Shown here piece by piece: positions 16,675 to 32,003 of a DNA stretch of 64,000 nucleotides (position 1 is its first letter; every line of letters starts with the position of its first letter). The notes beneath the pieces were generated by a model, which saw nothing but the letters and a program-made list of their open reading frames with translations, made no database searches and was not told the origin of the DNA. The stretch lies in contig JAUYJU010000027.1 of assembly GCA_030700155.1 (NCBI GenBank), positions 147,066-211,065 of the forward strand. The letters run 5' to 3'. The translations under genes and the position numbers were made by a program. This stretch comes from Candidatus Nanoarchaeia archaeon. Lineage in GTDB: Archaea; Nanobdellota; Nanobdellia; SCGC-AAA011-G17; JAUYJU01.

Positions 16675-16768
16675 TATTTTTAATAAATATTATAATATTT
16701 CTAGATATATTATAATCTACTTTTGGTTATACCGAATACCTTTTATACTACTAGCATTTCAGCAGTTT

Positions 16769-17038
16769 ATGTCAATGTTATCAGAAGACAAAGTAAAGAA
16801 AATCAAAGAGCAGATCTTGGTAGAATTATATCACCAAGGCCTAAAACCCATTTTTACAAGCGAATTAGCATCTTTAATAATTAGAGATGAAGAGTTCACT
16901 AAGCGTCTTTTACAAGCCCTAATGAAAGACAACCTTGTTGTCGAAGTTAATAAGTCTGCAAAAGGCAACACTTATTCCAAATGGAAAAGATGGAAATTAT
17001 CAGATAGCGCATATAAGGCAATGCAACAAGTATACTGA
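16769..17038 (+). CDS. Small winged-helix DNA-binding protein
   Basis: 89 aa with a helix-turn-helix-like core (FTSELASLIIRDEEFTKRLLQALMKDNLV) and a basic wing. Confidence 0.35.
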   Translation: MSMLSEDKVKKIKEQILVELYHQGLKPIFTSELASLIIRDEEFTKRLLQALMKDNLVVEVNKSAKGNTYSKWKRWKLSDSAYKAMQQVY

Positions 17039-17091
17039 ATATACCAAAATTTTATTAACTTACCCTTCTTTCGACAACATCAAGGGGAGTT

Positions 17092-17715
17092 ATGGTAGAT
17101 TTCGACAGCATCAAAGATGCATTTTTAAAAGTTAAGGAAGATATTCAACGTTTAGAAAAAGAGCTAGCAGAAGCTAAAAAGGCTAATTTAGAACAAAAAG
17201 AAGCCATTTTAGCCTTAAATAAGAAAATCGGTAACCTTTTAAGTTCTGATAAAAGTTTAGAGTTAAATAACAACTTTTTAGAAGAAAGTTCCATAGGAAA
17301 TGATGGGGTTCTTTCGACATCGACGGTTTCGACAGTAACGCCTTCGACAACATTTCGACAGTCTTTCGACAGCAACATCGACGACAACCCCATAGTTGCA
17401 GATATTAAAAAGAAATTCCAAAGTCTCACAGAAAGGGAATTTGCAGTTTTTGCTGCAACCTACCAATTAGAAGAGGAATTTGGCTCACAAGTGACCTATG
17501 CAGATTTAGCTGTAAAACTCTCACTTTCTAGATCTTCAATCAGGGACCACGTAGGAGAGCTTTTATTGAAGAAAGTTCCACTAATTAAACACCAGGCAGG
17601 AGATCGTAAGGTCTCACTTTCTATAAAAAAAGACTTTAGGGACCTGAATGTTATGTCTCAAATCCTCACTTTTAGAGGTTCCCTAGCAAATCAACGTCAA
17701 CTCTCTTCTTTCTAG
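17092..17715 (+). CDS. Coiled-coil protein with a C-terminal sigma-70-region-4-like HTH, putative regulator
   Basis: N-terminal coiled coil (QRLEKELAEAKKANLEQKEAIL). The C-terminus LTEREFAVFAATYQLEEEFGSQVTYADLAVKLSLSRSSIRDHV resembles sigma-70 region 4 / LuxR. The 5' region carries TTCGACA heptamer repeats. Confidence 0.4.
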   Translation: MVDFDSIKDAFLKVKEDIQRLEKELAEAKKANLEQKEAILALNKKIGNLLSSDKSLELNNNFLEESSIGNDGVLSTSTVSTVTPSTTFRQSFDSNIDDNPIVADIKKKFQSLTEREFAVFAATYQLEEEFGSQVTYADLAVKLSLSRSSIRDHVGELLLKKVPLIKHQAGDRKVSLSIKKDFRDLNVMSQILTFRGSLANQRQLSSF

Positions 17716-17858
17716 GATTATTTGAAACCTCACTTTTTGATTTTTGATACTTTTGGCCTATAGAATGAGTCAATATACCCACTAATTTTGATCTAAATCA
17801 CCTAAATATTAAACTCTAAACCCTCACTTTCTAACTTTATTTTAATTTATACTTATTT

Positions 17859-17929
17859 ATTAGGTATTTACTTACATAGTAGTATTAATACTTAACATAT
17901 AAGTATAATATACCTACATAATAAGTAAA
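17859..17929. repeat. 71-bp direct repeat, copy 1, containing the 12-bp palindrome AGTATTAATACT
   Basis: Read identical by eye to 18034..18104. The palindrome is at 17881..17892. Confidence 0.8.
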
Positions 17930-18033
17930 AACCATTAAAAACGCCCAATTACATCCAAATTACCGTAGATCTTATGTTATTTTTTGATATATTTACTCTC
18001 ACTTTTGATTACATTTAGATTATAATCTTACAA

Positions 18034-18104
18034 ATTAGGTATTTACTTACATAGTAGTATTAATACTTAACATATAAGTATAATATACCTACATAATAAG
18101 TAAA
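18034..18104. repeat. 71-bp direct repeat, copy 2, containing AGTATTAATACT
   Basis: Read identical by eye to 17859..17929. The palindrome is at 18056..18067. A third palindrome copy, TAAGTATTAATACTTA, is at 19347..19362. Confidence 0.8.
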
Positions 18105-18164
18105 TTACCCTCACTTTCACCACTTCTTTTTTAGCTACAAACCAAACAAACCCTACAATTTAAT

Positions 18165-18537
18165 GCGTCGATCACGTCTATAGACGCGTCGTAGACGCGT
18201 CCATTCACTCACTTTTAGTAAAATTCGCAACCGGAAATCTTCCGAACGGCATTTCTCATGCCTGCTCAGAAACCAATAAACTAACTCCCCGCTTCTTCTG
18301 GGGCTCACTTTCTTAATCCGGAAATCTTCCGAACGACTTTTTTAGGTGTTGGTGCCGCCTAATTTTATTTAACCCACAGACTGTCTAGACTCCCCTTTTC
18401 AAATCCGGAAATCCTTCAGAACACCAGAAATTCTCAGGAAACTGTAACCAAGTAGCAAGTACAAAATTAGAACGCGTCTACGACATGTCGTCGACGCGTC
18501 TATAGACGTCTTAGACGCGTCGTAGACGCGTCCAAAA
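18165..18537. repeat. GC-rich structured non-coding region: paired ACGCGT/GACGCGTC palindrome clusters flanking three CCGGAAATCTTCCG inverted-repeat units spaced about 87 bp apart
   Basis: The left cluster at 18165..18202 and the right cluster at 18471..18533 share CGTCTATAGACG plus AGACGCGTCGTAGACGCGTCC. IR units lie at 18231, 18318 and 18405. The third is degenerate. Confidence 0.75.
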
Positions 18538-18570
18538 AGTTTATATTCTAGCAAATACTACTATTTTAGC

Positions 18571-19245
18571 ATGGCTATACTATCAATATTTGCTAAGAAG
18601 AGCCCATCTGAAGGCTTAGAACAAAAATTAGCAGTTATAGACCGAAATATTTTCAATTCTTTTAGTGCAGTCAAAGAAGATTTTAGATCAATCAAAAGAT
18701 GGATAGAACATTTTGATGAAATCGACAAAAAACATGACATAGAAATATATGAATTAAAAGGCGAACTTAGATATCTTCGAACAACCTTAAGGGAAGTTCG
18801 CGATCAACAAGAAGAATTACGATCAAGCAGGCTTCATGAATCTCCCCCAAGGTATTATGAAGCACATCAGCAAAAAAGACAACCAATAGTAGAGGATATA
18901 GTCGAAGCAGAAGAGTTTGAGATTGTACCTCAAGTACAAACTCCAGTCAAAGTTGATATGGATCAATTTACTGATACTCAAAAAGCCATTTTTTCTAGGT
19001 TGGGAATCATACAAAAAGAAAGTTCTCAACCCTGGATCCCGCTTAAACATTTGGCTCATGAAGTTTATCCGGAAAAAGAGTACAATGATGTTCGTTCTAC
19101 ATTATCGGAATATATGGGGTTGTTATCAGACGCAGGCTTAATTAAAAGAACAAGAAAAGGAAAACAAACTTTCGTTTCTGTTTCTGAAAAAGGAAAACAA
19201 TTATTTGCTGATAACAGAAAGAAATTAAAACCTAAAGTAAAGTAA
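18571..19245 (+). CDS. Coiled-coil protein with a C-terminal winged helix, putative DNA-binding (regulator or Rep-like) protein
   Basis: N-terminal heptad-repeat region (IEIYELKGELRYLRTTLREVRDQQEEL). The C-terminus has wH-like LSEYMGLLSDAGLIKRTRKGKQTFVSVSEKG. The gene sits immediately downstream of the iteron-like region. Confidence 0.4.
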   Translation: MAILSIFAKKSPSEGLEQKLAVIDRNIFNSFSAVKEDFRSIKRWIEHFDEIDKKHDIEIYELKGELRYLRTTLREVRDQQEELRSSRLHESPPRYYEAHQQKRQPIVEDIVEAEEFEIVPQVQTPVKVDMDQFTDTQKAIFSRLGIIQKESSQPWIPLKHLAHEVYPEKEYNDVRSTLSEYMGLLSDAGLIKRTRKGKQTFVSVSEKGKQLFADNRKKLKPKVK

Positions 19246-19297
19246 TTTTATTTTAAACTTTAAAAAGATTATTTAAAGAGTTGATACAACTAATAAG

Positions 19298-19317
19298 AAG
19301 AATAAAACTTTTAAGCA
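19298..19317. repeat. 3'-end motif AGAATAAAACTTTTAAGCAA, copy 1 of 3
   Basis: The same motif recurs at 19931..19956 and 20582..20603, each at the stop of a consecutive + strand gene. Confidence 0.7.
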
Positions 19318-19434
19318 AAAACTAAAAGATTTAGTATACTACATATTAAGTATTAATACTTATTATGTAAGGATAACTATTAAAATAAGAGTAGTAAAGT
19401 TAAATTTATAACAAACCTATGCACTATATATCCT

Positions 19435-19929
19435 ATGGGAATTGAACTTAACATTCGAGAAATGAAAGAAGAAAAACCCAAAGATGATTCATTATTTCAA
19501 TGGGGCCTATTAATAGGTCTGATTGCTGGGGGAGTAGTGGGTGGTGTTTTAGGTTACAATCTTGGAAAATGGGTGCCAAAGCCAGCATCTACAAGCTCCA
19601 TAAAACAAATAAAAGGCTATCAGGGAACTGTTAAAGAGGTTTATACTGTTAGTTATAATCGTGCAGATAATTATTTACCGTTCAGAGTAAGCATTGCTCC
19701 AGAGGAAAAAACACCAAATGCAGAATATCTTATCAAATGTATAGATCGCCCAAATAGGGGTAGTTCTAAAATAAATTTATCCAAGCTAGAGGAGTTAATT
19801 AAGCCAGAAATGGGCATTGTGTTAAATCTAGATCAAGCATTACACCGTAAAGAATTATTAATAGACCCTACAAAGATCCTGAGTGTCGGAGGAATAAATA
19901 AAGATTTACTATTAATTAAAATAAAATAA
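19435..19929 (+). CDS. Membrane-anchored hypothetical protein
   Basis: A single TM helix (WGLLIGLIAGGVVGGVLGY), then a soluble domain. Confidence 0.3.
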   Translation: MGIELNIREMKEEKPKDDSLFQWGLLIGLIAGGVVGGVLGYNLGKWVPKPASTSSIKQIKGYQGTVKEVYTVSYNRADNYLPFRVSIAPEEKTPNAEYLIKCIDRPNRGSSKINLSKLEELIKPEMGIVLNLDQALHRKELLIDPTKILSVGGINKDLLLIKIK

Positions 19930-20064
19930 TCAAGAATAAAACTTTTAAGCAATTCTAATAACTTACTGCATAAGCGTAAACGTATCGTATAATAACCATT
20001 ATCAGGCATTGTCTAGTACCATATATACGAACCTTTTTATACTAATTTTGCGTATAATACTATT

Positions 20065-20586
20065 ATGACTGGGGATTATATTCTTTTACCAAAACAAACT
20101 CCAAATGGAAGACCGATGGTAAAATGCGTAAAGTGTGGCAAAATCAAAGAACATCATGCAAGGGGGCATTGTAACTGGTGTTTTAGAAAGTACTTATGGA
20201 CACCCAAAAAGATAACCTGCAAGGAGTGCGGTAGAGAAAGAAACCATAAAGCTTATGGATTATGTGGCGGATGTCATGTTAGGCTAAAACATTATGATAA
20301 CGTCCTTCGTTATAATGCAAAAAAATATCACAACATTGAGTTAGAATATTATCGAGAGATTACCAAGAAGTGCGACAATTGTAATTTTTCTAAGATTGTT
20401 AATATTCATCATTTAGATGGCAATACAAGAAATAATGATAGAAAAAATGTGGTCGGGTTATGTCCAAATTGTCATAAAATGATTCATATGTATAAATATT
20501 TTGAAGAAATTAAAGAAAGTCTAGCAGAGAAGGGCTTTGATGTTTCAATGGTTCATCCTTCAAACTATGTGAATCACAGAAAATAA
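20065..20586 (+). CDS. HNH endonuclease with N-terminal zinc-ribbon repeats
   Basis: Two C-x2-C...H/C modules (CVKCGKIKEHHARGHCNWC and CKECGRERNHKAYGLCGGCH). The C-terminal HNH motif is NIHHLDGNTRNNDRKNVVGLCPNCHKMIH. Confidence 0.65.
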   Translation: MTGDYILLPKQTPNGRPMVKCVKCGKIKEHHARGHCNWCFRKYLWTPKKITCKECGRERNHKAYGLCGGCHVRLKHYDNVLRYNAKKYHNIELEYYREITKKCDNCNFSKIVNIHHLDGNTRNNDRKNVVGLCPNCHKMIHMYKYFEEIKESLAEKGFDVSMVHPSNYVNHRK

Positions 20587-20611
20587 AACTTTTAAGCAAT
20601 TCTCAAAGATT

Positions 20612-20633
20612 AAATCTTCACTTATACGAACTA
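20612..20633. repeat. 22-bp direct repeat ATCTTCACTTATACGAACTAAA, copy 1
   Basis: Identical to 21222..21243. The 12-mer core TTATACGAACTA recurs at 30454..30465, immediately 5' of the integrase ATG. Confidence 0.7.
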
Positions 20634-20636
20634 AAT

Positions 20637-20975
20637 TCACTCAAGTTCAATAATTAACTTACGATCTTGAGGATGGATATATGCCTCTTTACCCTCTTTC
20701 AGTTTTAAGTATTCAGCAAGCTTTTTTGGAATCCTTACAGCAAGAGAATTGCCGCTCTTGGATATTTTAGTTTTTTGTCCAATACCCCAAATCCCTTTTT
20801 CTTTAGCAATCTTTTCAATTTTTTCCACATATTTAGAATCTGTAAATAATTCTCCGCACTCAGAACACTTTTCTCCAGGATAAGTTCCCAAATCTACACC
20901 AAACAATACATGTTTTTCTTTCACAGGTTTCAATTTTCCTTTTTCACAGATAGGACATATTTCCATATTTACCAC
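20637..20975 (-). CDS. Zn-ribbon plus AbrB/MazE-like (swapped-hairpin) domain protein, putative antitoxin
   Basis: N-terminal CPICEKG...CSECGE zinc ribbon. C-terminal GNSLAVRIPKKLAEYLKL matches the SpoVT/AbrB fold. It overlaps the downstream small ORF by 7 bp. Confidence 0.45.
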   Translation of the reverse strand: MVNMEICPICEKGKLKPVKEKHVLFGVDLGTYPGEKCSECGELFTDSKYVEKIEKIAKEKGIWGIGQKTKISKSGNSLAVRIPKKLAEYLKLKEGKEAYIHPQDRKLIIELE

Positions 20976-21172
20976 CTTGGTTTTACAGTTATAATGTAAT
21001 GCACATCTTTTATTTTCTTGTATACTACACTAAAATAACCGTATTCACTAACAAGCTTATCTGGCGCTTGTCTAAATTTGCTTCCACCTTTAATTGCCAA
21101 TTCAACTTCTTTCATTGAAATGCCCCTATCGATCATTTTTTCTTCAGCATGCTTACTTAGTTTTATGATCAA
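20969..21172 (-). CDS. Small DUF4258-like protein, putative toxin partner
   Basis: The 67-aa sequence MIIKLSKHAEEKMIDRGISMKEVELAIKGG resembles the conserved N-terminus of the DUF4258 RelE-fold family. Confidence 0.3.
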   Translation of the reverse strand: MIIKLSKHAEEKMIDRGISMKEVELAIKGGSKFRQAPDKLVSEYGYFSVVYKKIKDVHYIITVKPRW

Positions 21173-21221
21173 AGTAACACCGGTAATACCAGTAAGTACT
21201 AGTTATATTTAAACTTTTCCA

Positions 21222-21243
21222 TCTTCACTTATACGAACTAAAA
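21222..21243. repeat. 22-bp direct repeat ATCTTCACTTATACGAACTAAA, copy 2
   Basis: Identical to 20612..20633. The two copies bracket the 610-bp TA cassette. Confidence 0.7.
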
Positions 21244-21250: not shown

Positions 21251-21526
21251 TTATACTCTCTTAAATAAATTTCCAACATTATCATAAGCTTCTTTTCTAT
21301 GCTTTAACGCAATGCATACTAAAGTACCAGCTTCAATAAAGAAGAAAAGTCTATAGTCTCCCAGTCTTAATTTTCTTAATGGCTTAAATCCATGCAGTTC
21401 TTGGCTAATCTTAGTTATTCTATCACTATTGGCTATTAATTTTTCCTCTATCTTTTTTAGATAAGTTGCATGTAAATTATACTTTTTAAGATCGGTTTTT
21501 ATGTACTCTACAAACCTTACTAACAT
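21251..21526 (-). CDS. RelE/ParE-family toxin
   Basis: 91 aa with LRKLRLGDYRLFFFIE...CIALKHRKEAY, the typical RelE core. It abuts the upstream small ORF (stop and start adjacent). Confidence 0.55.
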   Translation of the reverse strand: MLVRFVEYIKTDLKKYNLHATYLKKIEEKLIANSDRITKISQELHGFKPLRKLRLGDYRLFFFIEAGTLVCIALKHRKEAYDNVGNLFKRV

Positions 21527-21757
21527 TTATTTCATCTCTGCAATTATCTGTTCAGAAGTTAAGAGTTTGGTTTTACCTTTCTTTAAGGCATTAATTCTTT
21601 CATTTAGAAGGTCTTTAGTTTCTTGGTTTAATTCTAGTTTATCCTCAATAAGTCGACTTACTACCTCGTTATAGGTCTCACTCTCAATTATTTTGAAATT
21701 ATCTAATTGCTCTACGACCTCCGATTTCAGTTTGATTTGTCTACTTGAGTTTACCAT
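21527..21757 (-). CDS. Putative antitoxin of the RelE-type pair
   Basis: 76-aa helical protein immediately upstream of and contiguous with the RelE-like gene. Confidence 0.4.
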   Translation of the reverse strand: MVNSSRQIKLKSEVVEQLDNFKIIESETYNEVVSRLIEDKLELNQETKDLLNERINALKKGKTKLLTSEQIIAEMK

Positions 21758-21837
21758 GGTAGATTACAGTGTTCCAGTCTATTTAAAGCTGTCTATACCC
21801 CAAATTATTATAAAGTCAAATCATTTCAATAAAGTTA

Positions 21838-22130
21838 TGACACAAGATAAACCAAAACAAGATTTAGCAGATATTTGTCTACAAGAAGCAGCACTTGCAA
21901 CAATCAAACTCCCAAAAAGCCAACCGATCAATGCAGAGATTCACATTTCAAGTCTCACTGAACTTTCTCCAGAAGCAAGAAAAAATTTAACAAAAACACC
22001 ATATCAAATTCAACCAGAAAAAGAAAAAAGTGAGACTTTAAAAGATCAACAAAAAGACTGCCCCCACTATATGTCAAGTGCAGCAGCATTATACAGAAAA
22101 CCAGGCGAAGAACTACCAGAAGATCTTTAA
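21838..22130 (+). CDS. Hypothetical protein. The start is trimmed from the track ORF 21693..22130
   Basis: MTQDKPKQDLADICLQEAALA... The longer track ORF would overlap the antitoxin gene antisense. Confidence 0.25.
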
Positions 22131-22438
22131 GCTGCCTTAGAGTTAGGATTTATTGATAGTATCTCTTCTTCTCCAACATCTTCCCCAGATTCTTTCAATA
22201 ACTTCCAAGTCTTTTTTAAAGAAATCTCAGCAGCTTTTGTAAGTTTTTCATTCTGCATCAGATAAGATATAACCTTTTTATTCTTAGAACTGATAAAACC
22301 ATTGTACATCTCTCTTAACTGTATAAATAAGGTAATTACCTGAAATTTAGCCACTAAATTTTTATTTGCGAATTCAAACAGTTCAGCACATTCCACTAGA
22401 ATAGTTTCAATACCTACTGGAGCAATTGGTGGAACCAT
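22127..22438 (-). CDS. Hypothetical protein
   Basis: 103-aa ORF with no recognisable motif. Confidence 0.25.
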   Translation of the reverse strand: MVPPIAPVGIETILVECAELFEFANKNLVAKFQVITLFIQLREMYNGFISSKNKKVISYLMQNEKLTKAAEISLKKTWKLLKESGEDVGEEEILSINPNSKAA

Positions 22439-22485
22439 ATTAAACTAAACACAAAAGTGAGCTTTAAACCTTTCTATTTTAGATA

Positions 22486-23028
22486 TCATGGGCACACAAA
22501 AAAGTACAAATCTCCAGTATCAATAGACAAGTGATAATTTATCTGCAATAATTGTTTTATTAACATAAATGTCAAAGTAATTGAAATTAAATTTAAAACT
22601 ATTGAAGTACAAGTTGCCCATTTATATTTCTCATTATAACCACTTATCCAAAGTATTAACAAAGAAAAATTAACAATTAAACTTAAAACAACCAACCACA
22701 TTACAACTTTAAAATCATTACGAATTCCTGCCAGTCTAATCTCTTGTCTTTCGGTTTTTGTCAAACTGCAAAATTCAGTTATGTTAGGTCTCACTTCAAC
22801 CCCATAGTCATAAGGAATTGAAGTAAATATTTTCCATAAATTTAAATTGCTTATTTTAGATGAGGATAAAGAGAAACTCACTTCCTCACAAGAAATATTT
22901 TTTTCTTCACATGCAGTTAAATGTCCCCCTTCATGATAATTAATTACAAACTTATCAAAAAGCAGGTTTATTGGAACAACTAAGATAGTCACTAAGATAA
23001 ATATTCCGAGGAGATAGTATTTATCCAT
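22486..23028 (-). CDS. Small integral membrane protein with an HExxH motif, possible membrane metalloprotease-like
   Basis: HEGGH at residues ~33-37 lies between TM helices. There are 4-5 TM segments. An 11-nt G tract sits 6 bp upstream of the ATG. Confidence 0.3.
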   Translation of the reverse strand: MDKYYLLGIFILVTILVVPINLLFDKFVINYHEGGHLTACEEKNISCEEVSFSLSSSKISNLNLWKIFTSIPYDYGVEVRPNITEFCSLTKTERQEIRLAGIRNDFKVVMWLVVLSLIVNFSLLILWISGYNEKYKWATCTSIVLNLISITLTFMLIKQLLQINYHLSIDTGDLYFFVCP

Positions 23029-24205: not shown

Positions 24206-24215
24206 GTTTCATTTT

Positions 24216-24800
24216 TTATTTTTTCTTCCTTACAAATAATAGGATTAGTACCAATATAGCTACTATTAAAAATACTAAGAAGGTTTTTGTTCCAAATTCA
24301 GTAAATGCTTTACTACTAACAACTTCAGCAGTTACAGGATTAGTTTCTCCAGCTGGACTTACCACAATAGGTATTCTAGTTCCTACAGCAGTTGTAAACT
24401 GAACCATATTACCTGCTTCTTCCTCTCCTAATTGACTGAATAAAACAGCAACTTCATATGTCTTACCAAAAGGAGCATTATTAGGGATAGTTATCTTAAT
24501 TTTTACATCAACATCTTTTTTACCAAAAGGAACTTTGTAGATTTCATTACCCACTAAACTAGCAATATCAGAACCGTCTCCTATCTTAGCACCCAATCTA
24601 ATGTCTTCTTCTCCAACCATATTTTGTAAGATTAAAGATATTACTTTTGTTTCCCCTGGTTTCATACTTAATACATGGCCTTCCCAATAAGGGCTAGTTA
24701 CACCAAAAGCACTAACTAATGGAAGTATAATTAACAAAATTGAGATACTCATAATTGCAAATCTAATTTTATTTTTCATCATTGTATACTTACCGTCCAT
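24216..24800 (-). CDS. Cell-surface protein with N-terminal signal and C-terminal TM anchor
   Basis: C-terminal FLVFLIVAILVLILLFVRKKK. A beta-rich ectodomain. Confidence 0.4.
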   Translation of the reverse strand: MDGKYTMMKNKIRFAIMSISILLIILPLVSAFGVTSPYWEGHVLSMKPGETKVISLILQNMVGEEDIRLGAKIGDGSDIASLVGNEIYKVPFGKKDVDVKIKITIPNNAPFGKTYEVAVLFSQLGEEEAGNMVQFTTAVGTRIPIVVSPAGETNPVTAEVVSSKAFTEFGTKTFLVFLIVAILVLILLFVRKKK

Positions 24801-25795
24801 AACCCAACATTTCCTGTGGAATATGCTTGTGGTGTTGCACCTGCAGTTACTTCTGTAATACAGAAGAATATCTGTTCTTGTCCAATTGTATTATCATTGA
24901 TACTATTGTTACCTCTTGTCAAGTTTCCATCTGGACCGGTAACAACAGCAGTATTATTTATAAGTTGTGTGCTTACTGAATCAACTTTATTACATTCAAC
25001 CGGTGGTGATCCACCAGCATTAGTGTCAACACTAAAGTTACTTACATTCAAGTACCTTGACTCCACAGTTTCACCTTGTAAGTTGACTGCAGTAATATTC
25101 AGATTACCTATTGTTATGTTCTTATTTCCAGTATTATTTATAGTTATTGGATCATTACTTGAAGTTTGATTTGTAGCTCCAACTGCAACTGATGACCATG
25201 TTAATGAACTAGGTGCCATTACCATTGCAGCAGTTTGTTGTAATGTGAAATTACTTGAAGTATTAGTTCCAACTGATCCACCGATGTCTCTGACTGTTGC
25301 ATTTACGGTAATATTTCCTGGAGCATCAAAAAACCAAATATTAATTGCGCAAGTATAATTAGCAGTACTACTGTTAAGGTCTGCAACAAATTCACAACTT
25401 GAATTAAATCTTATTGCCCCGCCCTCAGTTTGAGTTACATCAAATTGCGCTTGAGCAGAAGTATCATTTAAATCAGTAACCCCATCTGAGTCAGTAGCTA
25501 GGAAAGAAAATTCTACTGCTGTTGTGCTTGCTTCAGTAATACTCTGCGCACCTATTATTGAAACCGCATTTACACCAGGTGCAACACTACTTACAGTTAT
25601 ATTAACAGAAGTATTAGCATTTTGTGCCATACCAGTTATTAAATTACCCTGAGAATTTTCTAAAATATTAACCATACTTGACCAGAATAAAGGTAAAGAT
25701 AAAAATAAAATTGCTAATAAGACGTATAATGAATCATGATTGCCCTTAGGCATCTCACCACTTCCTTTAACCATCAAATTTACATAATTATTCAT
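24779..25795 (-). CDS. Surface protein paralog sharing the C-terminal ~250-aa domain of the giant protein
   Basis: The C-terminus ...ITINNTGNKNITIGNLNITAVNLQGE...AGATPQAYSTGNVGLWTVSIQ is near-identical to the C-terminus of the 1329-aa protein. Confidence 0.5.
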   Translation of the reverse strand: MNNYVNLMVKGSGEMPKGNHDSLYVLLAILFLSLPLFWSSMVNILENSQGNLITGMAQNANTSVNITVSSVAPGVNAVSIIGAQSITEASTTAVEFSFLATDSDGVTDLNDTSAQAQFDVTQTEGGAIRFNSSCEFVADLNSSTANYTCAINIWFFDAPGNITVNATVRDIGGSVGTNTSSNFTLQQTAAMVMAPSSLTWSSVAVGATNQTSSNDPITINNTGNKNITIGNLNITAVNLQGETVESRYLNVSNFSVDTNAGGSPPVECNKVDSVSTQLINNTAVVTGPDGNLTRGNNSINDNTIGQEQIFFCITEVTAGATPQAYSTGNVGLWTVSIQ

Positions 25796-25819
25796 ATTTA
25801 TAAACCTTTTTAAATTGTT

Positions 25820-28800
25820 TTATTGTATACTTACCGTCCATAAACCAACATTTCCTGTGGAATAAGCTTGTGGTGTTGCACCTGCAGTTATGTTTACTAA
25901 GCAGAAGTATACTTCTTCTTGTCCAAGACTAGCAGAGTTGTTACCTCTTGTCAAGTTTCCATCAGCTCCAGTTATTACACTTGTAGCATTTACTAATTGG
26001 ATTCCACCACATTCTACAGGAGGACTTCCTCCAGTGGCAGTATGCACAGTAAAGTTACTTACATTCAAGTATCTACTTCTGATTATTTCACCTTGCAAGT
26101 TAATTGCAGTAATATTCAAATTACCGATTGTAATATTTTTATTTCCAGTATTATTTATTGTCAAAGGATCATTCGTAGATGTTTGATTACCAACACCAAT
26201 GCTTAATGCATCCCAAGTCAATGCACTTGGTGCCATTACCATTGCAGCAGTTTCTTGTAAAGTGAAATTACTTGAAGTATTTGCACCAGTTTCAGCACTT
26301 AAATCTTTAATGGTGGCATTTACAGTCCAATTTCCAGCAGCATCAAAGTACCATAAATCTACTGTGCAAGTATAGTTAGCAGTTGAAGCATTAAGATCTC
26401 CGACAAGTAAACAACTTGTATTGGATCTTGTTGTTTCTCCAATAGCTTGGAATTCTGCAGTAGCTGAGCTATCATTCAAGTCATCCACTCCATCTGAATC
26501 TGAAGCTAGGAATGAGAACTGCACAGCAGTTGTACTTGCTTCAGTAATACTCTGCGCAGCAATTACTGAAACGTTGTGTGCAGTAGGAGCAACATTTGTT
26601 ATTTCAGTTACAGTAAATATTGAGTTACTTATAGCGAAACTACAATTGCTATCTCCATCACACCATTGGAAGTTCCAAGTATATCCACCAGCGACAACAT
26701 TTGAAACATTTATACTAGTTACAGCAGTAGTTCCTGTAACACTTACAGTTTGATTAGCAACCCAACTTCCAGAGATGTTGTGATATAATGTAGCATTAGC
26801 TAATCCTCTTGCATCACTTGCATTTGAATCAAATCTCCAAGTAGTTGAAGTATTTGAAGTCGCATTTGGCGGACTAGTTAAATTAATTCCACTAGGAGGA
26901 TTATTTATAGTGAAAGTAAAGTTAGCATCTGATTGGTTGCAGTTTCCAGCAGCATCGCACCACTGCACATTCCAAGTGTAACCACCATCAACAATATCTG
27001 TAACATTCATAGTTGTTACAACTCCACTAGTTCCACTTACAGTTACAGTTTGATTCGCAGTCCATGATCCAGAGATATTGTGGTATAATGTAGCGTTTAC
27101 CAATCCCAACGCGTCGCTTGCGTTGGATTCAAATCTCCAAGTTCTTGAAGTGTTTATTACCTCATTTGCGGGACTAGATAGGTTTACATCGCTTGGTCTT
27201 GCTGAGTCTACAGTGAAAGTAAAGTTAGCATTTGATTGGTTGCAATTTCCAGCAGCATCGCACCACTGCACATTCCAAATATATCTTCCATCTATTACAT
27301 TTGAAACATTTATTATTGTTCTAACTTGACTTGTTCCACTTACAGTTACAGTTTGATTCGCAGTCCATGATCCAGAGATATTGTGGTATAATGTAGCATT
27401 CACAACTCCAACACTATCGCTAGCATTAGATTCAAATGACCAGGTAGTAGACCTATTCAATTCATTGTTAGGTGGCATTGTTAAGTTAACTGCACTTGGT
27501 CTTGTATTATCAGCAGCTTGAACATAGGTTACATTAAAGAATAATGCATCAATAACCATACCATCTCTACCACCATTTGAAGTTCTTGTAACTCCAATTC
27601 TTGCTACAGCCTTAGTACCACTACCGAAGAAACTATCACAAGTCCAAGTTTCACCAATGTTAGTTACATTTTGACAGATTAATACTGGTGATGTGGTTCC
27701 ACCATTGAAACAAGTTGTATTCACATTAGTAAATGAAGCATTTGCATCTGCATCTACCTTTACAATACATTGCGTAGGGTCAGTAGCATCAACATTCCAA
27801 TCATAACATAACCAAACATCTCCAACAGAGTCACAATCCGTAACTGAAGAATTGCCAGTTTGCATATGGACGTTTCCCCAAACATTCTTATTGTAAGTGG
27901 TAGTTTCAGTGCTACCGCCATCACAAAGCCTATCTGCAGTACCGCAGGTTCCAGGATAAGTACCGGCACACGCATCATCAAAGGTATCTGCATTTGCAAC
28001 CGAGCTACCTAAACTACAAGCTGTAGCCCCAAGATCCGTAGTTCCATCAGGGAAAGCTTGAGGGTCAATTATATGGTCAAATTCCAAGTAAGCATAATCT
28101 AAGCCTTCTTTGTTAACTATCTTTAAATCAAAGGCATCTGAACTTCCTACCAAATTGGTTAAATAAATTGTATAGTAAGTTGTATTAGTAATTATTGGGA
28201 ATTCAGCAATCTTTGTAGACGAATTGTAATAATAAACTTCTAAAGTGGTGTTTAATCCCTGAGTATTTCTAGCATAAACTGTAATATCATTAGTTGAATT
28301 AAGTTTTTGTTCAAATGTAACTCTGACATATTCACTATGGTTGATTGGTCCAGACCAGATATTATCTAAAGATTTAGTCTCGTTGTAAATCTCTGAAATT
28401 AACACATAATTACTATCCAAGTGACTAGCTTTAGTTATTTCAATTACAATATCAAAGGTCTGATTACTTAAGTGAGGAGTTACCCAATAGATTTCATCTA
28501 CCAATCCATTGTTGTTATTATCTTTATACTCAGTTATTGCATGGGTTTGTCTTGAACCGTTTACAATCCAGTATAATTTGATTGAAGATTGTTTGGCATC
28601 AGCTATATTTGTGAAAGTAGAAACATTTTCATAATTCATTGCAGAATAAATTATAATTCTCTTTCCATCAGAAGTTTCTTCTTCAAATATCTGAGGAGCT
28701 TCAGTTTCGTATTCAATTTCTACTTCTTCAATTTCTTGTTCTACAACTAAGGAAGTTGCATTAGGTTCTTCAAAGATTGCAAAGCCAGTTATGAATGCAA

Positions 28801-29809
28801 AGAATCCAGTTATTGGATTAGGCGAACTAATTACATCAGAAGTTATATCTACAGTTTCATTGTTCTCTACTTTCTTTATAGATAATATTGAAACTTCTTT
28901 AGGCAACTCTATTTCTAAGTTAGTTGTCTTTTCTTTTAGTTTTATAATCTTCTTCCATTTAACTGGCTGACCAATAACCGCTCCATATTGTATTGTTTGC
29001 TCAGTTTCAACATCAGCATTAATTATAGTCAGGTTAATAGGAACTTCTTCAGTTACATTTTCAACAATAGTTTCATCTACTTCAGTTGTAACATTAGTTA
29101 TATTTGTAACTTCGCATCTTACCTTAGCATCTATCTTACTAATGATTACTTGATCATTAGAGTCATACACATACGCATGCAGCGCCTTACTTCCTTCTTT
29201 ATCCGTTGTCTGACAGTAAGTGAATGGACTGTTCAATTCTTGATCTACCTGAGGCAATGCCTTAGTTCCGGAGATATATCCTTTGGCATAACTTCCATTA
29301 CTCCACGAAATAGTCTCACATACAGTAAAGTTAGTTCCATCATAATCACAATAGTATTCTGTTATGTTCACAGTAGCACTGATACCAGTTTCATTAATTT
29401 CACTCAAGTTTCCATCTGTAACATTGAATACTGCAAATCCAGTAATATCAGAATCTAAGTAGAATAAACTTAATCCTAACATTCCGAATACAGCAAAGAT
29501 TAATAGTGCAGTTAACAATACCTTATTGTTTTCTGTTTGTTTTATCTTATCTTCACATATCTTTAAGTGTTCTCTATAAACCCTTATGCAGTTGTCATAA
29601 TAATTATTCCATTGTTCTAAAGTTCTGTTCTTTAATACATTCTTTAATGTAGATTCATATTCTTCATACTTGACACTACCCCTTGCAAATTGAGCGTTTA
29701 ATTTATCCACAAATCTATTTAGCTTAATCTTTGCATTTTCGCAAACTTCAATATTCCTGATTAGTCTAATCTTTCTCTTTTCCAGACTAGCTAGTTTATT
29801 GTTTTGCAT
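25820..29809 (-). CDS. Giant (1329 aa) N-glycosylation-rich surface protein or adhesin with a type II membrane topology
   Basis: A ~95-aa cytoplasmic coiled-coil N-terminus, a single TM helix (LLTALLIFAVFGMLGLSLFYL), a Cys-rich region, 3x ~100-aa tandem repeats (NATLYHNISGSW...ANFTFTV), and a C-terminal domain shared with the adjacent paralog. Confidence 0.6.
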   Translation of the reverse strand: MQNNKLASLEKRKIRLIRNIEVCENAKIKLNRFVDKLNAQFARGSVKYEEYESTLKNVLKNRTLEQWNNYYDNCIRVYREHLKICEDKIKQTENNKVLLTALLIFAVFGMLGLSLFYLDSDITGFAVFNVTDGNLSEINETGISATVNITEYYCDYDGTNFTVCETISWSNGSYAKGYISGTKALPQVDQELNSPFTYCQTTDKEGSKALHAYVYDSNDQVIISKIDAKVRCEVTNITNVTTEVDETIVENVTEEVPINLTIINADVETEQTIQYGAVIGQPVKWKKIIKLKEKTTNLEIELPKEVSILSIKKVENNETVDITSDVISSPNPITGFFAFITGFAIFEEPNATSLVVEQEIEEVEIEYETEAPQIFEEETSDGKRIIIYSAMNYENVSTFTNIADAKQSSIKLYWIVNGSRQTHAITEYKDNNNNGLVDEIYWVTPHLSNQTFDIVIEITKASHLDSNYVLISEIYNETKSLDNIWSGPINHSEYVRVTFEQKLNSTNDITVYARNTQGLNTTLEVYYYNSSTKIAEFPIITNTTYYTIYLTNLVGSSDAFDLKIVNKEGLDYAYLEFDHIIDPQAFPDGTTDLGATACSLGSSVANADTFDDACAGTYPGTCGTADRLCDGGSTETTTYNKNVWGNVHMQTGNSSVTDCDSVGDVWLCYDWNVDATDPTQCIVKVDADANASFTNVNTTCFNGGTTSPVLICQNVTNIGETWTCDSFFGSGTKAVARIGVTRTSNGGRDGMVIDALFFNVTYVQAADNTRPSAVNLTMPPNNELNRSTTWSFESNASDSVGVVNATLYHNISGSWTANQTVTVSGTSQVRTIINVSNVIDGRYIWNVQWCDAAGNCNQSNANFTFTVDSARPSDVNLSSPANEVINTSRTWRFESNASDALGLVNATLYHNISGSWTANQTVTVSGTSGVVTTMNVTDIVDGGYTWNVQWCDAAGNCNQSDANFTFTINNPPSGINLTSPPNATSNTSTTWRFDSNASDARGLANATLYHNISGSWVANQTVSVTGTTAVTSINVSNVVAGGYTWNFQWCDGDSNCSFAISNSIFTVTEITNVAPTAHNVSVIAAQSITEASTTAVQFSFLASDSDGVDDLNDSSATAEFQAIGETTRSNTSCLLVGDLNASTANYTCTVDLWYFDAAGNWTVNATIKDLSAETGANTSSNFTLQETAAMVMAPSALTWDALSIGVGNQTSTNDPLTINNTGNKNITIGNLNITAINLQGEIIRSRYLNVSNFTVHTATGGSPPVECGGIQLVNATSVITGADGNLTRGNNSASLGQEEVYFCLVNITAGATPQAYSTGNVGLWTVSIQ
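26609..27505. repeat. Three tandem ~300-bp DNA repeats encoding the ~100-aa Ig-like repeats of the giant surface protein
   Basis: Protein repeats at residues ~769-868, 869-968 and 969-1067. The spurious + strand ORFs 26421..26753 and 27078..27329 are mutually similar, confirming DNA-level repetition. Confidence 0.7.
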
Positions 29810-30341
29810 CCTTCTCCATAGAATTTTTATAAGTTGTCCAGATTGTACGTTCGTCTCTCTTCAGCAACAATGCAATTTCATGATAGGATAATTGATAAGA
29901 ATCTTTCAGATAAGCGACAATATTTTCTAAAACTCCAAGCTTTTTATTTTTCAAAATTGAAGCTGGAATTAAATAATTGGATTCTAAATTTTCAAATTTA
30001 ATCGGAAGTTTGTTTTTGCTTGAATTATAAGCCTGCCAAACAGATTTAGAATCACGATCAATCAAAGAAGCTATTTTTTTATTTTTAAAGCCAAGGTTTT
30101 CTTTTAGATATTTACAGATGCTTTCTAAAGCCCCCAATTCTTTGGAAAATATAGAAACCGGAATTAAAACATCAGATTCTAATTCATTAATTAATTCAAC
30201 AGCAGACTTTTTTTCTTTTAATTTATCATATAGTGCTTGGAATCTTAGAAACTCAACAAAATCTTTCTTTTCTTCTTGCTTAATCGGACTAGTAAAATCT
30301 ACATCTTTCCTGTTTTTTGTACTCTTTTTTCTATTTAACAA
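29796..30341 (-). CDS. Tandem-duplicated sigma-70-region-4-like HTH protein, putative regulator of the surface-protein operon
   Basis: Two ~55-aa repeats (LIPVSIFSKELGALESICKYLKENLGF...IASLIDRDSKSVWQAY and LIPASILKNKKLGVLENIVAYLKDSYQLSYHEIALLLKRDERTIWTTY). It overlaps the giant gene start by 14 bp. Confidence 0.4.
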   Translation of the reverse strand: MLNRKKSTKNRKDVDFTSPIKQEEKKDFVEFLRFQALYDKLKEKKSAVELINELESDVLIPVSIFSKELGALESICKYLKENLGFKNKKIASLIDRDSKSVWQAYNSSKNKLPIKFENLESNYLIPASILKNKKLGVLENIVAYLKDSYQLSYHEIALLLKRDERTIWTTYKNSMEKDAKQ

Positions 30342-30465
30342 AGTAAATATTACTATTTAGATAGGTACAATATATAAATGTGCCTATTAATAGTCTATTC
30401 AAATAAGTATAATATCTATTTAACTAAGTAGAAGACCTTTTATATCTAATCGCATTATACGAACT

Positions 30466-31290
30466 ATGGATAAAAAAGAGGTTATTCAGAAAGTCCAGAC
30501 AGAGCTCAAAATTCAGGGAAAAAGTCCAAGAACCCAAAGGATGTATACTTTTTTCAATGAAAATTTCTTAGATTTTATTAAAAAGTCTCCAGACTCAGTA
30601 ATCCAGGATGACATTAAATCCTTCTTCGCTTATCTTTTATCAGACAAAAAATATAATGCTTCTTCAGTTGCATTAGCAAGATGCGCATTACGTTTTTGTT
30701 ATGATGAAATATTGGGAAAAAATATTGTAACTAATATAAAAACTCCAAAATTTCAAAGAAAAATCCCAGAAATTCCATCTAAAACAGAGATTAGATTAAT
30801 GTTAGACCATTCCAAGAACTTAAAAAATAAAATAATGATAGAATTTCTTTACTCTTCAGGCTTAAGAGTTTCAGAATTAGCAAATCTAAAAATAAAAGAT
30901 TTAAATCTAGAGGAAAAAACCGGTTTATTAAAATCCGGAAAGGGTGGAAAAGATAGATTTTTCATAATGTCGGAGTTATTAGTTAAAGATTTAAAAGAAT
31001 ATTTAAAAAATCATAAAGAAGAATATTTATTAATTGGTTTTGACGGCCCAATTTCAACTAGGTCCATACAAAAATCAATTCAAAGAACTGCAAAAAGAGC
31101 AAACATACAAAAGAAAATTTATCCGCATCTACTAAGGCACGCTTTTGCAACGCATTTATTAGAGGATGGTGTAGATATAAGGCATATTCAGGTTTTGCTT
31201 GCGCATTCAAATCTTCAAACTACTGCTTGGTATACTCAAGTTTCAACAAAAGAATTAAAAAAGATTAAAAGTCCTTTAGATACAATTTAA
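30466..31290 (+). CDS. Tyrosine recombinase/integrase (XerC/D-like)
   Basis: N-terminal SAM-like domain. Catalytic R...HxxR...Y signature: HLLRHAFATHLL and LLAHSNLQTTAWYTQV. Confidence 0.8.
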   Translation: MDKKEVIQKVQTELKIQGKSPRTQRMYTFFNENFLDFIKKSPDSVIQDDIKSFFAYLLSDKKYNASSVALARCALRFCYDEILGKNIVTNIKTPKFQRKIPEIPSKTEIRLMLDHSKNLKNKIMIEFLYSSGLRVSELANLKIKDLNLEEKTGLLKSGKGGKDRFFIMSELLVKDLKEYLKNHKEEYLLIGFDGPISTRSIQKSIQRTAKRANIQKKIYPHLLRHAFATHLLEDGVDIRHIQVLLAHSNLQTTAWYTQVSTKELKKIKSPLDTI

Positions 31291-32003
31291 CCCAAATAAC
31301 TTAAATTTTTCTTAGTCGCAATTTGTTCTTTAGACTGTTGAGTTTTTTCCATCAATTCCCTCAATTGCCTTTCAAAGTCTTCAGCTTTTTTGATTAAAGG
31401 TTTAGGATCAATCTTTAATCCTAAATATTTATCAAGAACATCAATTATCTTAGCAGAAGCTCTCGCATCAGGAAAATTATTTACAGTCTCTGCAAAAATA
31501 AATGTAGTTTTTAAATTTCTTTTAACTAATAAAGCACCACTTACCCCCATAATAATCCCTTCTCTTAATTCTTTAGCACCAGTCTTAGCTAATTTTTTAT
31601 GATCTCCATCCCCGACAAAAAAAGCATTGCCACCACTACTAGGTCTTTCACTGCTTGATCCAATACCTTCAATGCTGATAACTTCTTTAGCATTCAAATC
31701 TTTAGCCAATTTACAAATAGCATCTGCTAATGCCCACTCAATACCCTTTACATCAGTTAAAGCGTGTAGAATCACTATATTGGTTTTTGGATCATAAAAG
31801 ATTCCTAAAGGTTCAACTGCTTCACCTTCATGAACAGCAATTACAGGAGGAACTTCTTTTATTCTAATCCTACCTATTTCTTTAGCTTTTAAATGTCTTA
31901 TTAAGAATTCAGTAGTTATTGTTCCAACAAGTCCAAAACCTGGAAAACCCTCTATTATTATGGGGTTCTTTGGCTTCTTATCTAAAATCACCTTCATTTT
32001 CAT
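31287..32003 (-). CDS. PAC2-family proteasome assembly chaperone
   Basis: The N-terminal motif IIIEGFPGFGLVGTI is characteristic of archaeal PAC2/COG1938 proteins. Confidence 0.5.
   Translation of the reverse strand: MKMKVILDKKPKNPIIIEGFPGFGLVGTITTEFLIRHLKAKEIGRIRIKEVPPVIAVHEGEAVEPLGIFYDPKTNIVILHALTDVKGIEWALADAICKLAKDLNAKEVISIEGIGSSSERPSSGGNAFFVGDGDHKKLAKTGAKELREGIIMGVSGALLVKRNLKTTFIFAETVNNFPDARASAKIIDVLDKYLGLKIDPKPLIKKAEDFERQLRELMEKTQQSKEQIATKKNLSYLG

Follow-up and report, generated by a model that had tools for sequence, protein, structure and literature searches.

A putative XerA- and dif-linked cassette hot spot near the replication origin of a Woesearchaeal genome

We analysed a window of 64,000 nt (the whole stretch of DNA under study) from a low-GC (~32%) DPANN archaeon of the Woesearchaeota, in which a run of small variable genes and a large surface-protein operon lie between a winged-helix gene, wH224, and xerA, a gene for a tyrosine recombinase. 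A first-pass annotation had taken positions 16700-31300 as one acquired element bounded by its own integrase. We found instead a mosaic: the left third of this interval and the recombinase gene belong to the core genome, and only the part at ~19.25-30.45 kb is lineage-specific. Junctions within this part carry single arms of a dif-like site, which in related genomes occurs in full, is confined to the wH224-xerA interval and encloses cargo that differs from one genome to the next. On balance, we think it probable from these comparisons of sequences that the variable part is a dif/xerA-linked hot spot, at which XerA would capture cassettes that have no recombinase of their own.

A lineage-specific stretch between conserved flanks

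Features of the window were scanned with Pfam, NCBIfam, PHROGs, PADLOC, Rfam and ARAGORN. Related loci (labelled L002 to L175, the window being W) came from a LonB scan in which one genome per species was kept; it yielded 30 contigs with LonB identities of 57-73%, nearly all labelled Woesearchaeota or Nanoarchaeota. Five closer relatives were found by protein search: L050, which shares 93% identity with the window in LonB and 80% in wH224, and L051, L052, L174 and L175, which share 81% in LonB and 71.5% in XerA. A metagenome scan with a wH224 alignment returned no close relatives, the top match having 50-55% identity on short contigs. Synteny was established by tblastn with the window proteins and by all-against-all clustering of open reading frames (ORFs).

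The same gene order from PolD to PAC2 was found in ~20 contigs with LonB identities of 57-93%. It runs PolD(large)-PolD(small)-Orc1-(oriC)-PRC-LonB-h148-(h89 or a 175-aa gene)-HTH207, followed by a spacer of 500-850 nt, wH224, a variable part, XerA, zero to two genes, PAC2 and tRNA-Lys. Because this syntenic order recurs and HTH207 and wH224 are always paired, we regard both the left third (16.7-19.25 kb) and the right end of the interval, from xerA onwards, as vertically inherited core. The block at 16.2-19.2 kb, with h148, h89, the two winged-helix paralogs and their spacer, is inherited in the same way, and the idea that the left third had been acquired together with the rest did not survive the finding that its order (16.7-19.2 kb) is conserved in ~20 Woesearchaeota contigs. 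On the right side, the core begins at 30.45 kb with xerA and continues with PAC2, tRNA-Lys and the MoxR operon. The outer flanks had rightly been judged core: they hold the PolD small subunit, Orc1/Cdc6 and LonB on the left, and, on the right, the DUF58-MoxR-vWA/BatA operon, seryl-tRNA synthetase and topoisomerase I.

wH224 has orthologues in every related locus and, judged by gene order, marks the left edge of the variable stretch. The distance from wH224 to xerA is 2.3 kb in L043 and in L051, 3.5 kb in L052 and 11.2 kb in the window, and the shorter relatives have the same flanking genes around this variable part. The ~19.25-30.45 kb portion is lineage-specific and inserted relative to genomes with the same flanks. 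The empty site that an acquired element should have left in relatives was found in part: relatives with the same flanks do have 2.3-3.5 kb at this position, and these minimal configurations (L043, L051 and L052) keep xerA. The order in L043 is wH224, a 43-aa zinc-ribbon gene, a dif-like site 1.5 kb past wH224, XerA, PAC2, tRNA-Lys, DUF58, MoxR, DUF7502 and vWA; the site scores 18/18, and sites of at least 16/18 are counted as strong. In relatives, the wH224-xerA position would hold one or more XerA sites of the dif type and a few small genes, and here it has grown to 11.2 kb.

A recombinase of the housekeeping XerA type

The tyrosine recombinase gene at 30466-31290 (+ strand) was correctly recognized in the first pass, and its product has a two-domain architecture (Pfam Phage_int_SAM_4 and Phage_integrase). 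It matches the NCBIfam model NF040815 (recomb_XerA_Arch) with 236 bits against a cutoff of 220, covering 259/263 model positions, and it scores below the cutoff in each of the XerC, XerD and IntI models. The top PDB match is XerA of Pyrococcus abyssi (4A8E, 4.5e-47), and XerA of Thermoplasma acidophilum is also among the best solved relatives. In the full-length alignment with 4A8E, the motifs in which the catalytic residues of the family lie (GLRVSE, GKGGKDR, H-LRH-FATH, GHSNL/AHSNL and the C-terminal Tyr) are conserved. The catalytic set is R-K-H-R-H/W-Y (PMC5357621).

The gene adjoins PAC2 in seven contigs (L002, L007, L008, L028, L041, L043 and L052) and lies close to it in L015 and L051, with a 747-aa gene between the two in L051; tRNA-Lys usually follows. 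Identity to the L051/L052 counterparts is 71.5% for XerA, 70% for PAC2 and 79% for MoxR. Because of the equivalog match, the XerA structures as best relatives and this neighbour-like divergence, the recombinase is the XerA of the host, presumably in charge of dimer resolution. Its interpretation as an integrase borne by an element is at odds with the match to the XerA equivalog NF040815, the synteny with PAC2 and the rate at which it diverges. More generally, a "XerC/D-like integrase" beside variable genes in an archaeal metagenome-assembled genome (MAG) should not be taken to mark an island boundary.

A family of dif-like sites tied to the xerA locus

The repeat TTATACGAACTA, which the first-pass annotation had offered as a possible att repeat, is one arm of a dif-like site of the form TTC(G/A)(C/T)ATAA-N6-TTAT(A/G)(C/T)GAA. 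The suggestion holds insofar as the repeat is the arm of a recombination site, recurs at cassette junctions and is dif-like; no repeat of a tRNA fragment accompanies it. From 26 distinct sites we derived the consensus A-n-TTC(a/g)(c/t)ATAA-TGTATr-TTATA(c/t)GAAct, a near-palindrome of 26-28 bp, of which TTTCATATAATGTATATTATACGAAC is a full example from the relatives. It closely resembles E. coli dif and loxP. The architecture, 11-6-11 with inner ATAA/TTAT, matches that of P. abyssi dif, which is ATTGGATATAA-TCGGCC-TTATATCTAAA (PMC2958812).

The sites are strongly confined. In the 10 loci that hold both genes, 16/16 sites scoring at least 16/18 fall between wH224 and xerA, intervals that make up 47.9 kb of 179 kb (p = 7e-10), and all loci together hold 27 such sites, against 0.8 in shuffled sequence. 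They lie 0.05-7 kb from xerA, usually at less than 1.5 kb, and often occur in 2-5 copies that bracket variable genes. In four loci (L008, L009, L028 and L041, hereafter the L008 group), invariant columns make up 69% of site A and 85% of site B and only 0-5% of the 40 nt on either side, so that the sites themselves appear to be under selection. The cargo between sites A and B is unrelated among the four, with zero bases aligned, and in L028 it is a homologue of the HNH gene of the window. Pairs of sites also flank unrelated cargo in L005/L036, L013 and L026, and in the last two, arrays of 3-5 sites occupy successive intergenic junctions. An arm of the form ATTAT(A/G)CGAA(C/T) lies between the TATA box and the start of xerA in seven genomes (L007, L008, L009, L019, L028, L051 and L052), in which the surrounding DNA has diverged.

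Because of their confinement, the apparent selection on them and the differing cargo that they enclose, we argue that the dif-like sites are likely functional recombinase sites tied to the xerA locus. XerA would bind and recombine them, and they would correspond to the chromosomal dif. Beyond these loci, 12/117 IMG/VR contigs carrying this class of palindrome have a Xer-like gene within 600 nt; the scan returned no Woesearchaeal element (0/117 contigs), and the number 117 may itself be near chance for a collection of that size.

Some further observations concern the same sites. The L043 site at 12151 (reverse strand; reverse complement CTTCGTATAATGTATGTTATATGAAA) shares a 16-nt run with loxP (ATAACTTCGTATAATGTATGCTATACGAAGTTAT), and the commonest spacer, TGTATA, is also that of E. 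coli dif. Contamination with vector sequence is unlikely, because the sites vary between MAGs. The 43-aa zinc-ribbon gene (MKFKENCPECKEKL...) lies between wH224 and dif in at least 10 relatives with 70-89% DNA identity, for example at L028 5373-5536, L008 15943-16107, L041 12358-12527 and L043 11640-11799. What we had first considered a conserved "non-coding" element of 165 nt, located upstream of site A in relatives, proved to be this gene. Its apparent promoter is the box AAAACTTTTAAGC; the clade of the window has no zinc-ribbon gene, and there the AAAACTTTTAAGC box is followed by an L-type dif-like site.

Half sites and conserved modules in the window

Exact copies of TTATACGAACTA start at 20622, 21229 and 30455 in the window, all on the + strand and all at intergenic cassette junctions. 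Together with a one-mismatch copy at 45586 this makes 4 against 0.29 expected, a count reached in 0/100 shuffles. From left to right, the stretch consists of Box-1, the gene h164, Box-2 with an L-type site, the nuclease gene HNH173, Box-3 with an R arm, a DUF4258/MazE cassette and another R arm, and it continues with a 9.2-kb block (ParE/DUF7557, three small ORFs and the surface operon) up to the R arm in the xerA promoter.

The boxes are three non-coding modules shared by W, L051, L052, L174 and L175, each of which opens with AAAACTTTTAAGC directly after a stop codon. Box-1 (19304-19376, +) consists of AAAACTTTTAAGC and then a 30-nt palindrome, TACATATTAAGTATTAATACTTATTATGTA, and it follows wH224 in L051, L052, L174 and L175 as well. 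Box-2 (19938-20010, +) begins with AAAACTTTTAAGCAATTCTAA and ends in the L-type dif-like site at 19983-20008, tatcgtataa TAACCA ttatcaggca, the counterpart of which in L051 is gggcgtataa TACTCA ttaggcgaaa. About 70 nt of Box-2 are conserved with L052 and L051, and homology does not extend past the L-type site. Between Box-1 and Box-2, the window, L052 (183 aa), L051 (176 aa) and L174 (243 aa) have genes that are not homologous to one another. Box-3 with its R-type half site occupies 20585-20636 (+); its R arm is TTATACGAACTAAA, and the same composite occurs in L052 (11680-11735) between unrelated genes.

Two kinds of direct repeat bear out the repeat-bounded cassettes that had been described earlier. 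AATAAAACTTTTAAGCAA occurs three times, at 19298, 19932 and 20579, and the 22-nt repeat ATCTTCACTTATACGAACTAAA occurs twice on the + strand with starts 607 nt apart, at 20614-20635 (with TTATACGAACTA at 20622-20633) and at 21221-21242 (with TTATACGAACTA at 21229-21240). We read the 22-nt repeats as the remnant of an outer left arm (CTTCAC) fused straight to a right arm, with no spacer. The remaining R-arm half site, at 30439-30466 (+), has its TTATACGAACTA copy at 30455-30466 between the TATA box and the start codon of xerA; it is a candidate autoregulatory operator for XerA and bounds the variable stretch on the right.

Contigs of the same strain in Logan (SRR13727534, 100% identical) end exactly at 13883, 19932 and 22130; the first position lies directly behind LonB, the second at the repeat of Box-2 and the third at the convergent junction that follows the ParE cassette. 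Such breaks may stem from repeats at the cassette boundaries or from strain heterogeneity there.

Cargo of the variable stretch

The first cargo gene, h164 (19435-19929, +), encodes a membrane-anchored protein and is the replaceable gene for which relatives have a non-homologous one. It is followed by HNH173 (20065-20586, +), an HNH nuclease with zinc ribbons, which was recognized best by PHROGs (HNH, 5.9e-8) and more weakly by Pfam, NCBIfam and PADLOC, in agreement with its first assignment. Homologues of HNH173 are sporadic (L004, L013 in inverted orientation, L028, L040 and L042), and the cassette thus occurs in six loci including the window, with differing neighbours and orientations. In 4/5 related loci the gene has a dif-like site no more than ~80 nt away, with one on each side in L028; no site was seen in L040, where the contig ends inside the gene. 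Taken together, these positions suggest that HNH173 recurs as a mobile cassette.

Two toxin-antitoxin pairs come next, as had been reported, and all four proteins exceed their Pfam cutoffs. A zinc-ribbon/AbrB-MazE antitoxin (20637-20975, -) and a DUF4258 toxin (20969-21172, -) form a cassette (20637-21172) bracketed by the two 22-nt repeats, and a ParE toxin (21251-21526, -) is paired with a DUF7557 antitoxin (21527-21757, -). Three small lineage-specific ORFs follow, at 21756-22130 (+), 22127-22438 (-) and 22486-23028 (-), the last of which is membrane-protein-like with a HEGGH motif. These three (21756-23028) have no Pfam, PHROGs or PADLOC matches and no homologues in the related loci, and searches of the same three databases with the cargo and the conserved proteins of unassigned function were mostly empty. 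Among the main ORFs searched at 19.25-30.45 kb, Pfam, PHROGs and PADLOC detected no recombinase or transposase domains, and no replication, capsid or conjugation genes were found among the ORFs searched there.

The largest part of the cargo is a surface-protein operon (23057-30341, -), transcribed from right to left. Its first gene is HTH181 (29796-30341, -), followed by surf1329 (25820-29809, -), surf338 (24779-25795, -), surf194 (24216-24800, -) and surf382 (23057-24205, -), so that the large surface-protein genes noticed at 23057-29809, with their internal and tandem repeats, are real. The same five genes occur in the same order in another Woesearchaeota genome, L170, with 39-60% identity, and the HTH181 family has at least 196 members. 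Judged from these similarities, the surface operon is of an ordinary Woesearchaeal kind. We considered HTH181 as a homologue of the gene that precedes xerA in other clades and rejected this, since the two are not homologous.

Within the operon, surf338 and the C-terminal third of surf1329 (region 24767-26830) are tandem paralogs that share 71-83% DNA identity over ~1 kb, and surf1329 has three internal repeats of ~300 nt at 26643-27504. These repeats are likely a substrate for recombinational variation of the surface proteins, which look rich in Asn, Thr and Ser. The compositional shift expected of an island was not seen: GC content is flat at 0.28-0.39 across the window, and tetranucleotide usage deviates only at ~23-30 kb (z up to 3.8), which corresponds to the repetitive surface-protein genes. 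This deviation is no proof of foreign origin.

Capture by XerA and other explanations

We propose that XerA of the host would recombine dif-like sites on incoming DNA with the chromosomal dif beside xerA, and that cassettes without a recombinase of their own would thereby be inserted, swapped and stacked. The sites of the window would later have decayed to single arms, so that the array is probably fixed by now. Through the arm in its promoter, xerA is probably also repressed by its own product.

Several points weigh against this proposal. A full two-arm site scoring at least 14/18 is absent throughout the 64 kb, which hold single-arm sites only. The 22-nt repeat has no spacer and in this form is unusable by a tyrosine recombinase. 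Because no two-arm site is present and the 22-nt repeats are fused arm remnants, the array of the window looks decayed. Serial integration at dif predicts one perfect right arm, and three are seen. The spacers of paired sites differ, both in the L008 group (GATATG at site A, TGTATA at site B) and in the window (TAACCA and CTTCAC). No free or circular form, no element bearing an attP and no strain of >95% identity with an empty site was found; look-ups of the exact LonB and HNH173 proteins led to Logan contigs of the same strain only, without an empty site, and the exact XerA and MazE-like antitoxin proteins are not on record. The 19-kb locus L170 has no xerA and no dif-like site beside its surface operon, and the operon may have reached the window by ordinary rearrangement. 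Possibly the conserved box AAAACTTTTAAGC just acts as promoter or terminator, and homologous recombination between modules would then be enough to replace cassettes without XerA. Finally, it is unusual for dif to be so near oriC, and this genome may have its genuine dif elsewhere than in the window.

The most serious alternative is an ordinary plasticity zone between wH224 and xerA, in which gain, loss and rearrangement are tolerated and XerA has no role in capture; once DNA has been taken up, genes might for instance be replaced by homologous recombination between the conserved intergenic modules, as promoters or terminators. In that case the dif-like sequences would be the chromosomal dif, decayed duplicates of it and an operator for XerA. 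We hold this explanation, with both its parts taken together, to be possible but rather doubtful. It would account well for the Box-1/2/3 modules (70-120 nt), which are fixed by position as the genes between them differ, for the AAAACTTTTAAGC box that in other clades is also the apparent promoter of the 43-aa zinc-ribbon gene, for a window that holds only half sites, and for a surface operon that occurs elsewhere without dif-like sites. It sits poorly with the L008 group, in which only the 26-bp sites are conserved; because the adjoining 40 nt are fully diverged, there are no long homologous flanks next to the swapped cargo. Many loci, moreover, have two or more strong sites at cassette boundaries, whereas dimer resolution needs one, and the HNH cassette keeps its adjacent dif-like site despite differing neighbours and orientation.

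The first-pass annotation had described 16700-31300 as a probable integrated element or genomic island. On this view it would be a single element (a plasmid, virus or island) with a XerC/D-like integrase, plasmid-type iterons and HTH regulators of its own, inserted beside PAC2 and a tRNA. All the features on which the annotation drew were recovered at or near the positions it gave, and the interval does recall such an element in that a recombinase lies at one end and iteron-like repeats, toxin-antitoxin pairs and an HNH nuclease lie within; the 12-mer direct repeats are real, and PHROGs labels the recombinase an integrase. We nevertheless consider this very unlikely. The recombinase is a XerA equivalog, syntenic with PAC2 and tRNA-Lys and divergent at the rate of its neighbours, the iteron region and both winged-helix genes are conserved in place across the order, and composition does not shift at 16.7-23 kb. 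Among the ORFs searched there are no hallmark genes of a phage or plasmid and none for replication, capsid or conjugation, and a repeated tRNA fragment is also lacking. The interval is better described as a mosaic in which core genes adjoin a cassette hot spot.

Least credible of all is an archaeal integron with the recombinase as IntI and the small genes as attC-separated cassettes: such systems are reported in Archaea including DPANN lineages (PMC9668308), an array of short ORFs with toxin-antitoxin pairs and related non-coding modules does lie near a tyrosine recombinase gene, and the product name of the NCBIfam XerA model mentions "integron integrase" with a partial match to TIGR02249, but that match falls in two pieces at 179 against a cutoff of 265, the 274-aa protein has no room for the IntI-specific domain and IntI4 (2A3V) aligns in two stretches only, the junctions are by eye 11-6-11 dif-type palindromes or single arms and not folded R''-L''/L'-R' attC sites, and the modules keep their positions from genome to genome and do not move along with cassettes.

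The winged-helix paralogs and their repeat-rich spacer

The conserved block to the left of the cassettes begins with h89 (16769-17038, +), a small conserved protein identified by tblastn and ORF clustering. It is found at the same position in at least 8 contigs (L002, L020, L022, L026, L032, L050, L052 and L174), in inverted copies in L031 and L049, and alternates with a 175-aa gene at this position in other clades. The next gene, HTH207 (17092-17715, +), encodes a coiled coil with a C-terminal helix-turn-helix (HTH) that is weakly matched, and wH224 (18571-19245, +), a coiled coil with a winged helix, is its paralog in the same family (fam0). The pair stands directly after LonB-h148 in 18 loci. 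In the AlphaFold model of wH224, a helix covers residues 12-88 and the winged helix residues 135-217, with a mean pLDDT (predicted local distance difference test) of 73. Weak fold and profile matches were to AspA (an archaeal centromere-binding protein), TubR, ArsR-family regulators, Sso10a and ORC winged-helix domains; these searches of the winged-helix paralogs returned generic winged-helix matches only (E ~3e-3 to 4e-2), to which no family could be assigned. The several HTH genes noted in the first pass are present, at 16769-17038, 17092-17715, 18571-19245 and 29796-30341, with weak Pfam matches.

Between the two paralogs lies a conserved, repeat-rich spacer (17716-18570), delimited by repeat searches and by comparison with the spacers of relatives. 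The repeat-rich, "iteron-like" character attributed to this non-coding region is real; its place in an island is not, because its motifs and synteny are kept at the same position across the order. The motif GACGCGTC occurs five times against 0.03 expected, in palindrome arrays of 11-bp period at 18165-18203 and 18470-18536, the second of which stops just ahead of the TATA box of wH224. CTCACTTT occurs nine times consecutively at 17520-18311, all on the + strand; three copies are inside the HTH207 ORF and six, co-oriented, are in the spacer (17729, 17823, 17998, 18110, 18208 and 18304). The spacer also holds CCGGAAATCTTCCGA three times.

Spacers of relatives have the same layout, namely 3-6 co-oriented CTCACTT(T) followed by an array of 11-bp period, GACG(C/T)GTC / CGTCTACGA, and both motifs and layout are retained in relatives with LonB identities of only 60-93%. 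Length class and motif content are conserved across the order, and the 11-bp-period array is almost invariant among W, L050, L052 and L032. In the segment from HTH207 to wH224, 88/88 copies of CTCACTT from 17 loci lie on the + strand, and their density is 29 times that of the background. Most likely, the spacer serves the HTH207/wH224 paralogs as an operator or nucleoprotein array, which would be autoregulatory and is possibly centromere-like or origin-auxiliary. An RNA may run along the + strand across the CTCACTTT array, and Rfam gave zero matches at E<=1 on 17650-18620. We also considered the repeats as iterons of an integrated plasmid replicon and dropped this, given the conservation of the region at the same position across the order.

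Other repeats were seen in or near the spacer. TTCGACA occurs seven times on the + strand at 17070-17371, mostly within the 5' part of the HTH207 ORF, and L002 has CTTTCGACA repeats in the spacer and not in the ORF. A 78-nt direct repeat (96% identical; 17852-17929 and 18027-18104) is common to the window and L050, whereas L052 and L032 lack it. The core of the repeat, AGTATTAATACTTA..., is found again in the Box-1 palindrome (19349-19376), and the repeat could be a small duplicated or inserted unit.

Neighbouring features

To the right of xerA, PAC2 (31287-32003, -; Pfam) and an intron-containing tRNA (32814-32927) are located where they had been placed; the tRNA was detected by Rfam (51 bits) and missed by ARAGORN. 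The succession of PAC2 and tRNA-Lys(CTT) is kept in L002, L041 and L043. A LAGLIDADG-like ORF (32157-32846), also in the core right flank, abuts and overlaps the 5' end of the intron-containing tRNA at the tRNA-Lys(CTT) position. A LAGLIDADG homologue stands beside an intron-containing tRNA in L028 (10449-10967), and L008 has an intron-containing tRNA at the equivalent position (21541-21666); in L002, L041 and L043 the tRNA-Lys is intron-less, and a LAGLIDADG homologue was not detected there by tblastn. The window has a single copy of the 3' half of the tRNA, with no repeated fragment, and the tRNA was dropped as an integration target for that reason; dif arms are the only repeats at the boundaries.

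On the left, just outside the interval, 13733-16141 is a second lineage-specific insertion, in which h178 (13733-14269) and h456 (14771-16141) flank a staphylococcal-nuclease (SNase) gene (14247-14705). In L050 (LonB 93%), the SNase gene alone lies between LonB and h148. The protein h456 matches the PADLOC defence candidate HEC-07, and its C-terminal domain is HicA-like.

Further left, a 525-nt AT-rich intergenic region between orc1/cdc6 and the PRC-barrel gene (11062-11586) is the probable replication origin. It contains, at 11455, an element like an origin recognition box (ORB), actccacatgaaatggtggtgggggtg, and L002 and L043 have motifs similar to it. The Orc1/Cdc6 assignment comes from an NCBIfam equivalog, and GC skew tracks gene orientation and is uninformative for the origin. 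The interval lies ~6-20 kb from this Orc1-linked origin.

Relation to known systems and significance

Resemblance is closest to two bacterial systems. Like IMEX (integrative mobile elements that exploit Xer), the cassettes of this locus have no recombinase of their own, would sit at the dif of the host with one good and one degenerate dif-like site, are stacked in tandem and vary in presence and absence among genomes with the same flanks (PMC5357621, PMC9765430). Unlike IMEX, the locus is in an archaeon with a single XerA and no FtsK, its cargo is one or two genes of 0.4-1.5 kb and not a phage or large island, no free form or attP was seen, and the sites of the window have decayed to single arms. 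The dif (pdif) modules of Acinetobacter are likewise small modules of one to a few genes with 28-bp Xer sites in shuffled contexts, among them toxin-antitoxin modules of ~0.8 kb, a size similar to ours, and the inner parts of their arms are conserved as the outer parts vary, as here (PMC6449649). They depend on XerC/XerD, have alternating C-D/D-C sites and are mostly on Rep_3 plasmids, whereas the locus described here would use a single XerA and near-palindromic chromosomal sites beside xerA and near oriC. Membership in either group cannot be claimed, because the window has no intact flanking sites and its Xer dependence is putative; the locus is best said to resemble them.

The archaeal XerA/dif systems of Pyrococcus, Thermoplasma and Sulfolobus have the same recombinase family and 11-6-11 sites with ATAA/TTAT (PMC2958812, PMC8371274), and a linked xerA/dif module has been reported in some archaea (PMC5357621). 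In Thermococcales, dif is described as single-copy, away from xerA and in the termination region, in contrast to the multiple sites found here beside xerA, ~10-20 kb from the Orc1-linked origin. XerS/difSL of streptococci and lactococci is also a single Xer linked to its site (PMC5357621), but it is bacterial and FtsK-dependent, with a site of different sequence and length (31 bp in XerS). Integrons share with the locus a recombinase gene beside an array of small, promoterless-looking cassettes that includes toxin-antitoxin genes; archaeal ones require IntI and attC (PMC9668308), whereas the locus has neither an IntI-specific domain nor attC structure and its modules are fixed in position. The literature that we covered, incompletely and including a 2021 review of archaeal tyrosine recombinases, describes no archaeal Xer-exploiting element, IMEX or multi-site cassette locus.

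More broadly, we tentatively suggest that Woesearchaeota, and perhaps other DPANN archaea, use XerA and a set of conserved yet non-identical dif-like sites next to its gene as a platform for gene capture and cassette exchange near the origin, and that the conserved, strictly polar repeat array (CTCACTTT, GACGCGTC) between the two winged-helix paralogs would be a new origin-proximal element of centromere-like or regulatory function; we regard this wider proposal as uncertain and somewhat doubtful. Only in bacteria is Xer-dependent mobility known, as in IMEX and dif modules, and there it contributes to the spread of toxins and antibiotic resistance; archaeal dif has been described as single-copy and as serving chromosome-dimer resolution only. 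If the proposal is true, these would be the first Xer-exploiting mobile cassettes described in Archaea, which would extend this type of mobility to the archaeal domain, and the XerA platform would be a functional analogue of integrons and of the Acinetobacter dif modules that does without IntI and attC. The sites would also provide a testable set of natural XerA substrates. They place the likely dif of Woesearchaeota ~10-20 kb from oriC, which bears on how chromosome dimers are resolved in archaea that have no FtsK. For genome-reduced, symbiont-like archaea, such a platform would be a route to exchange toxin-antitoxin, nuclease and surface genes without integrases.

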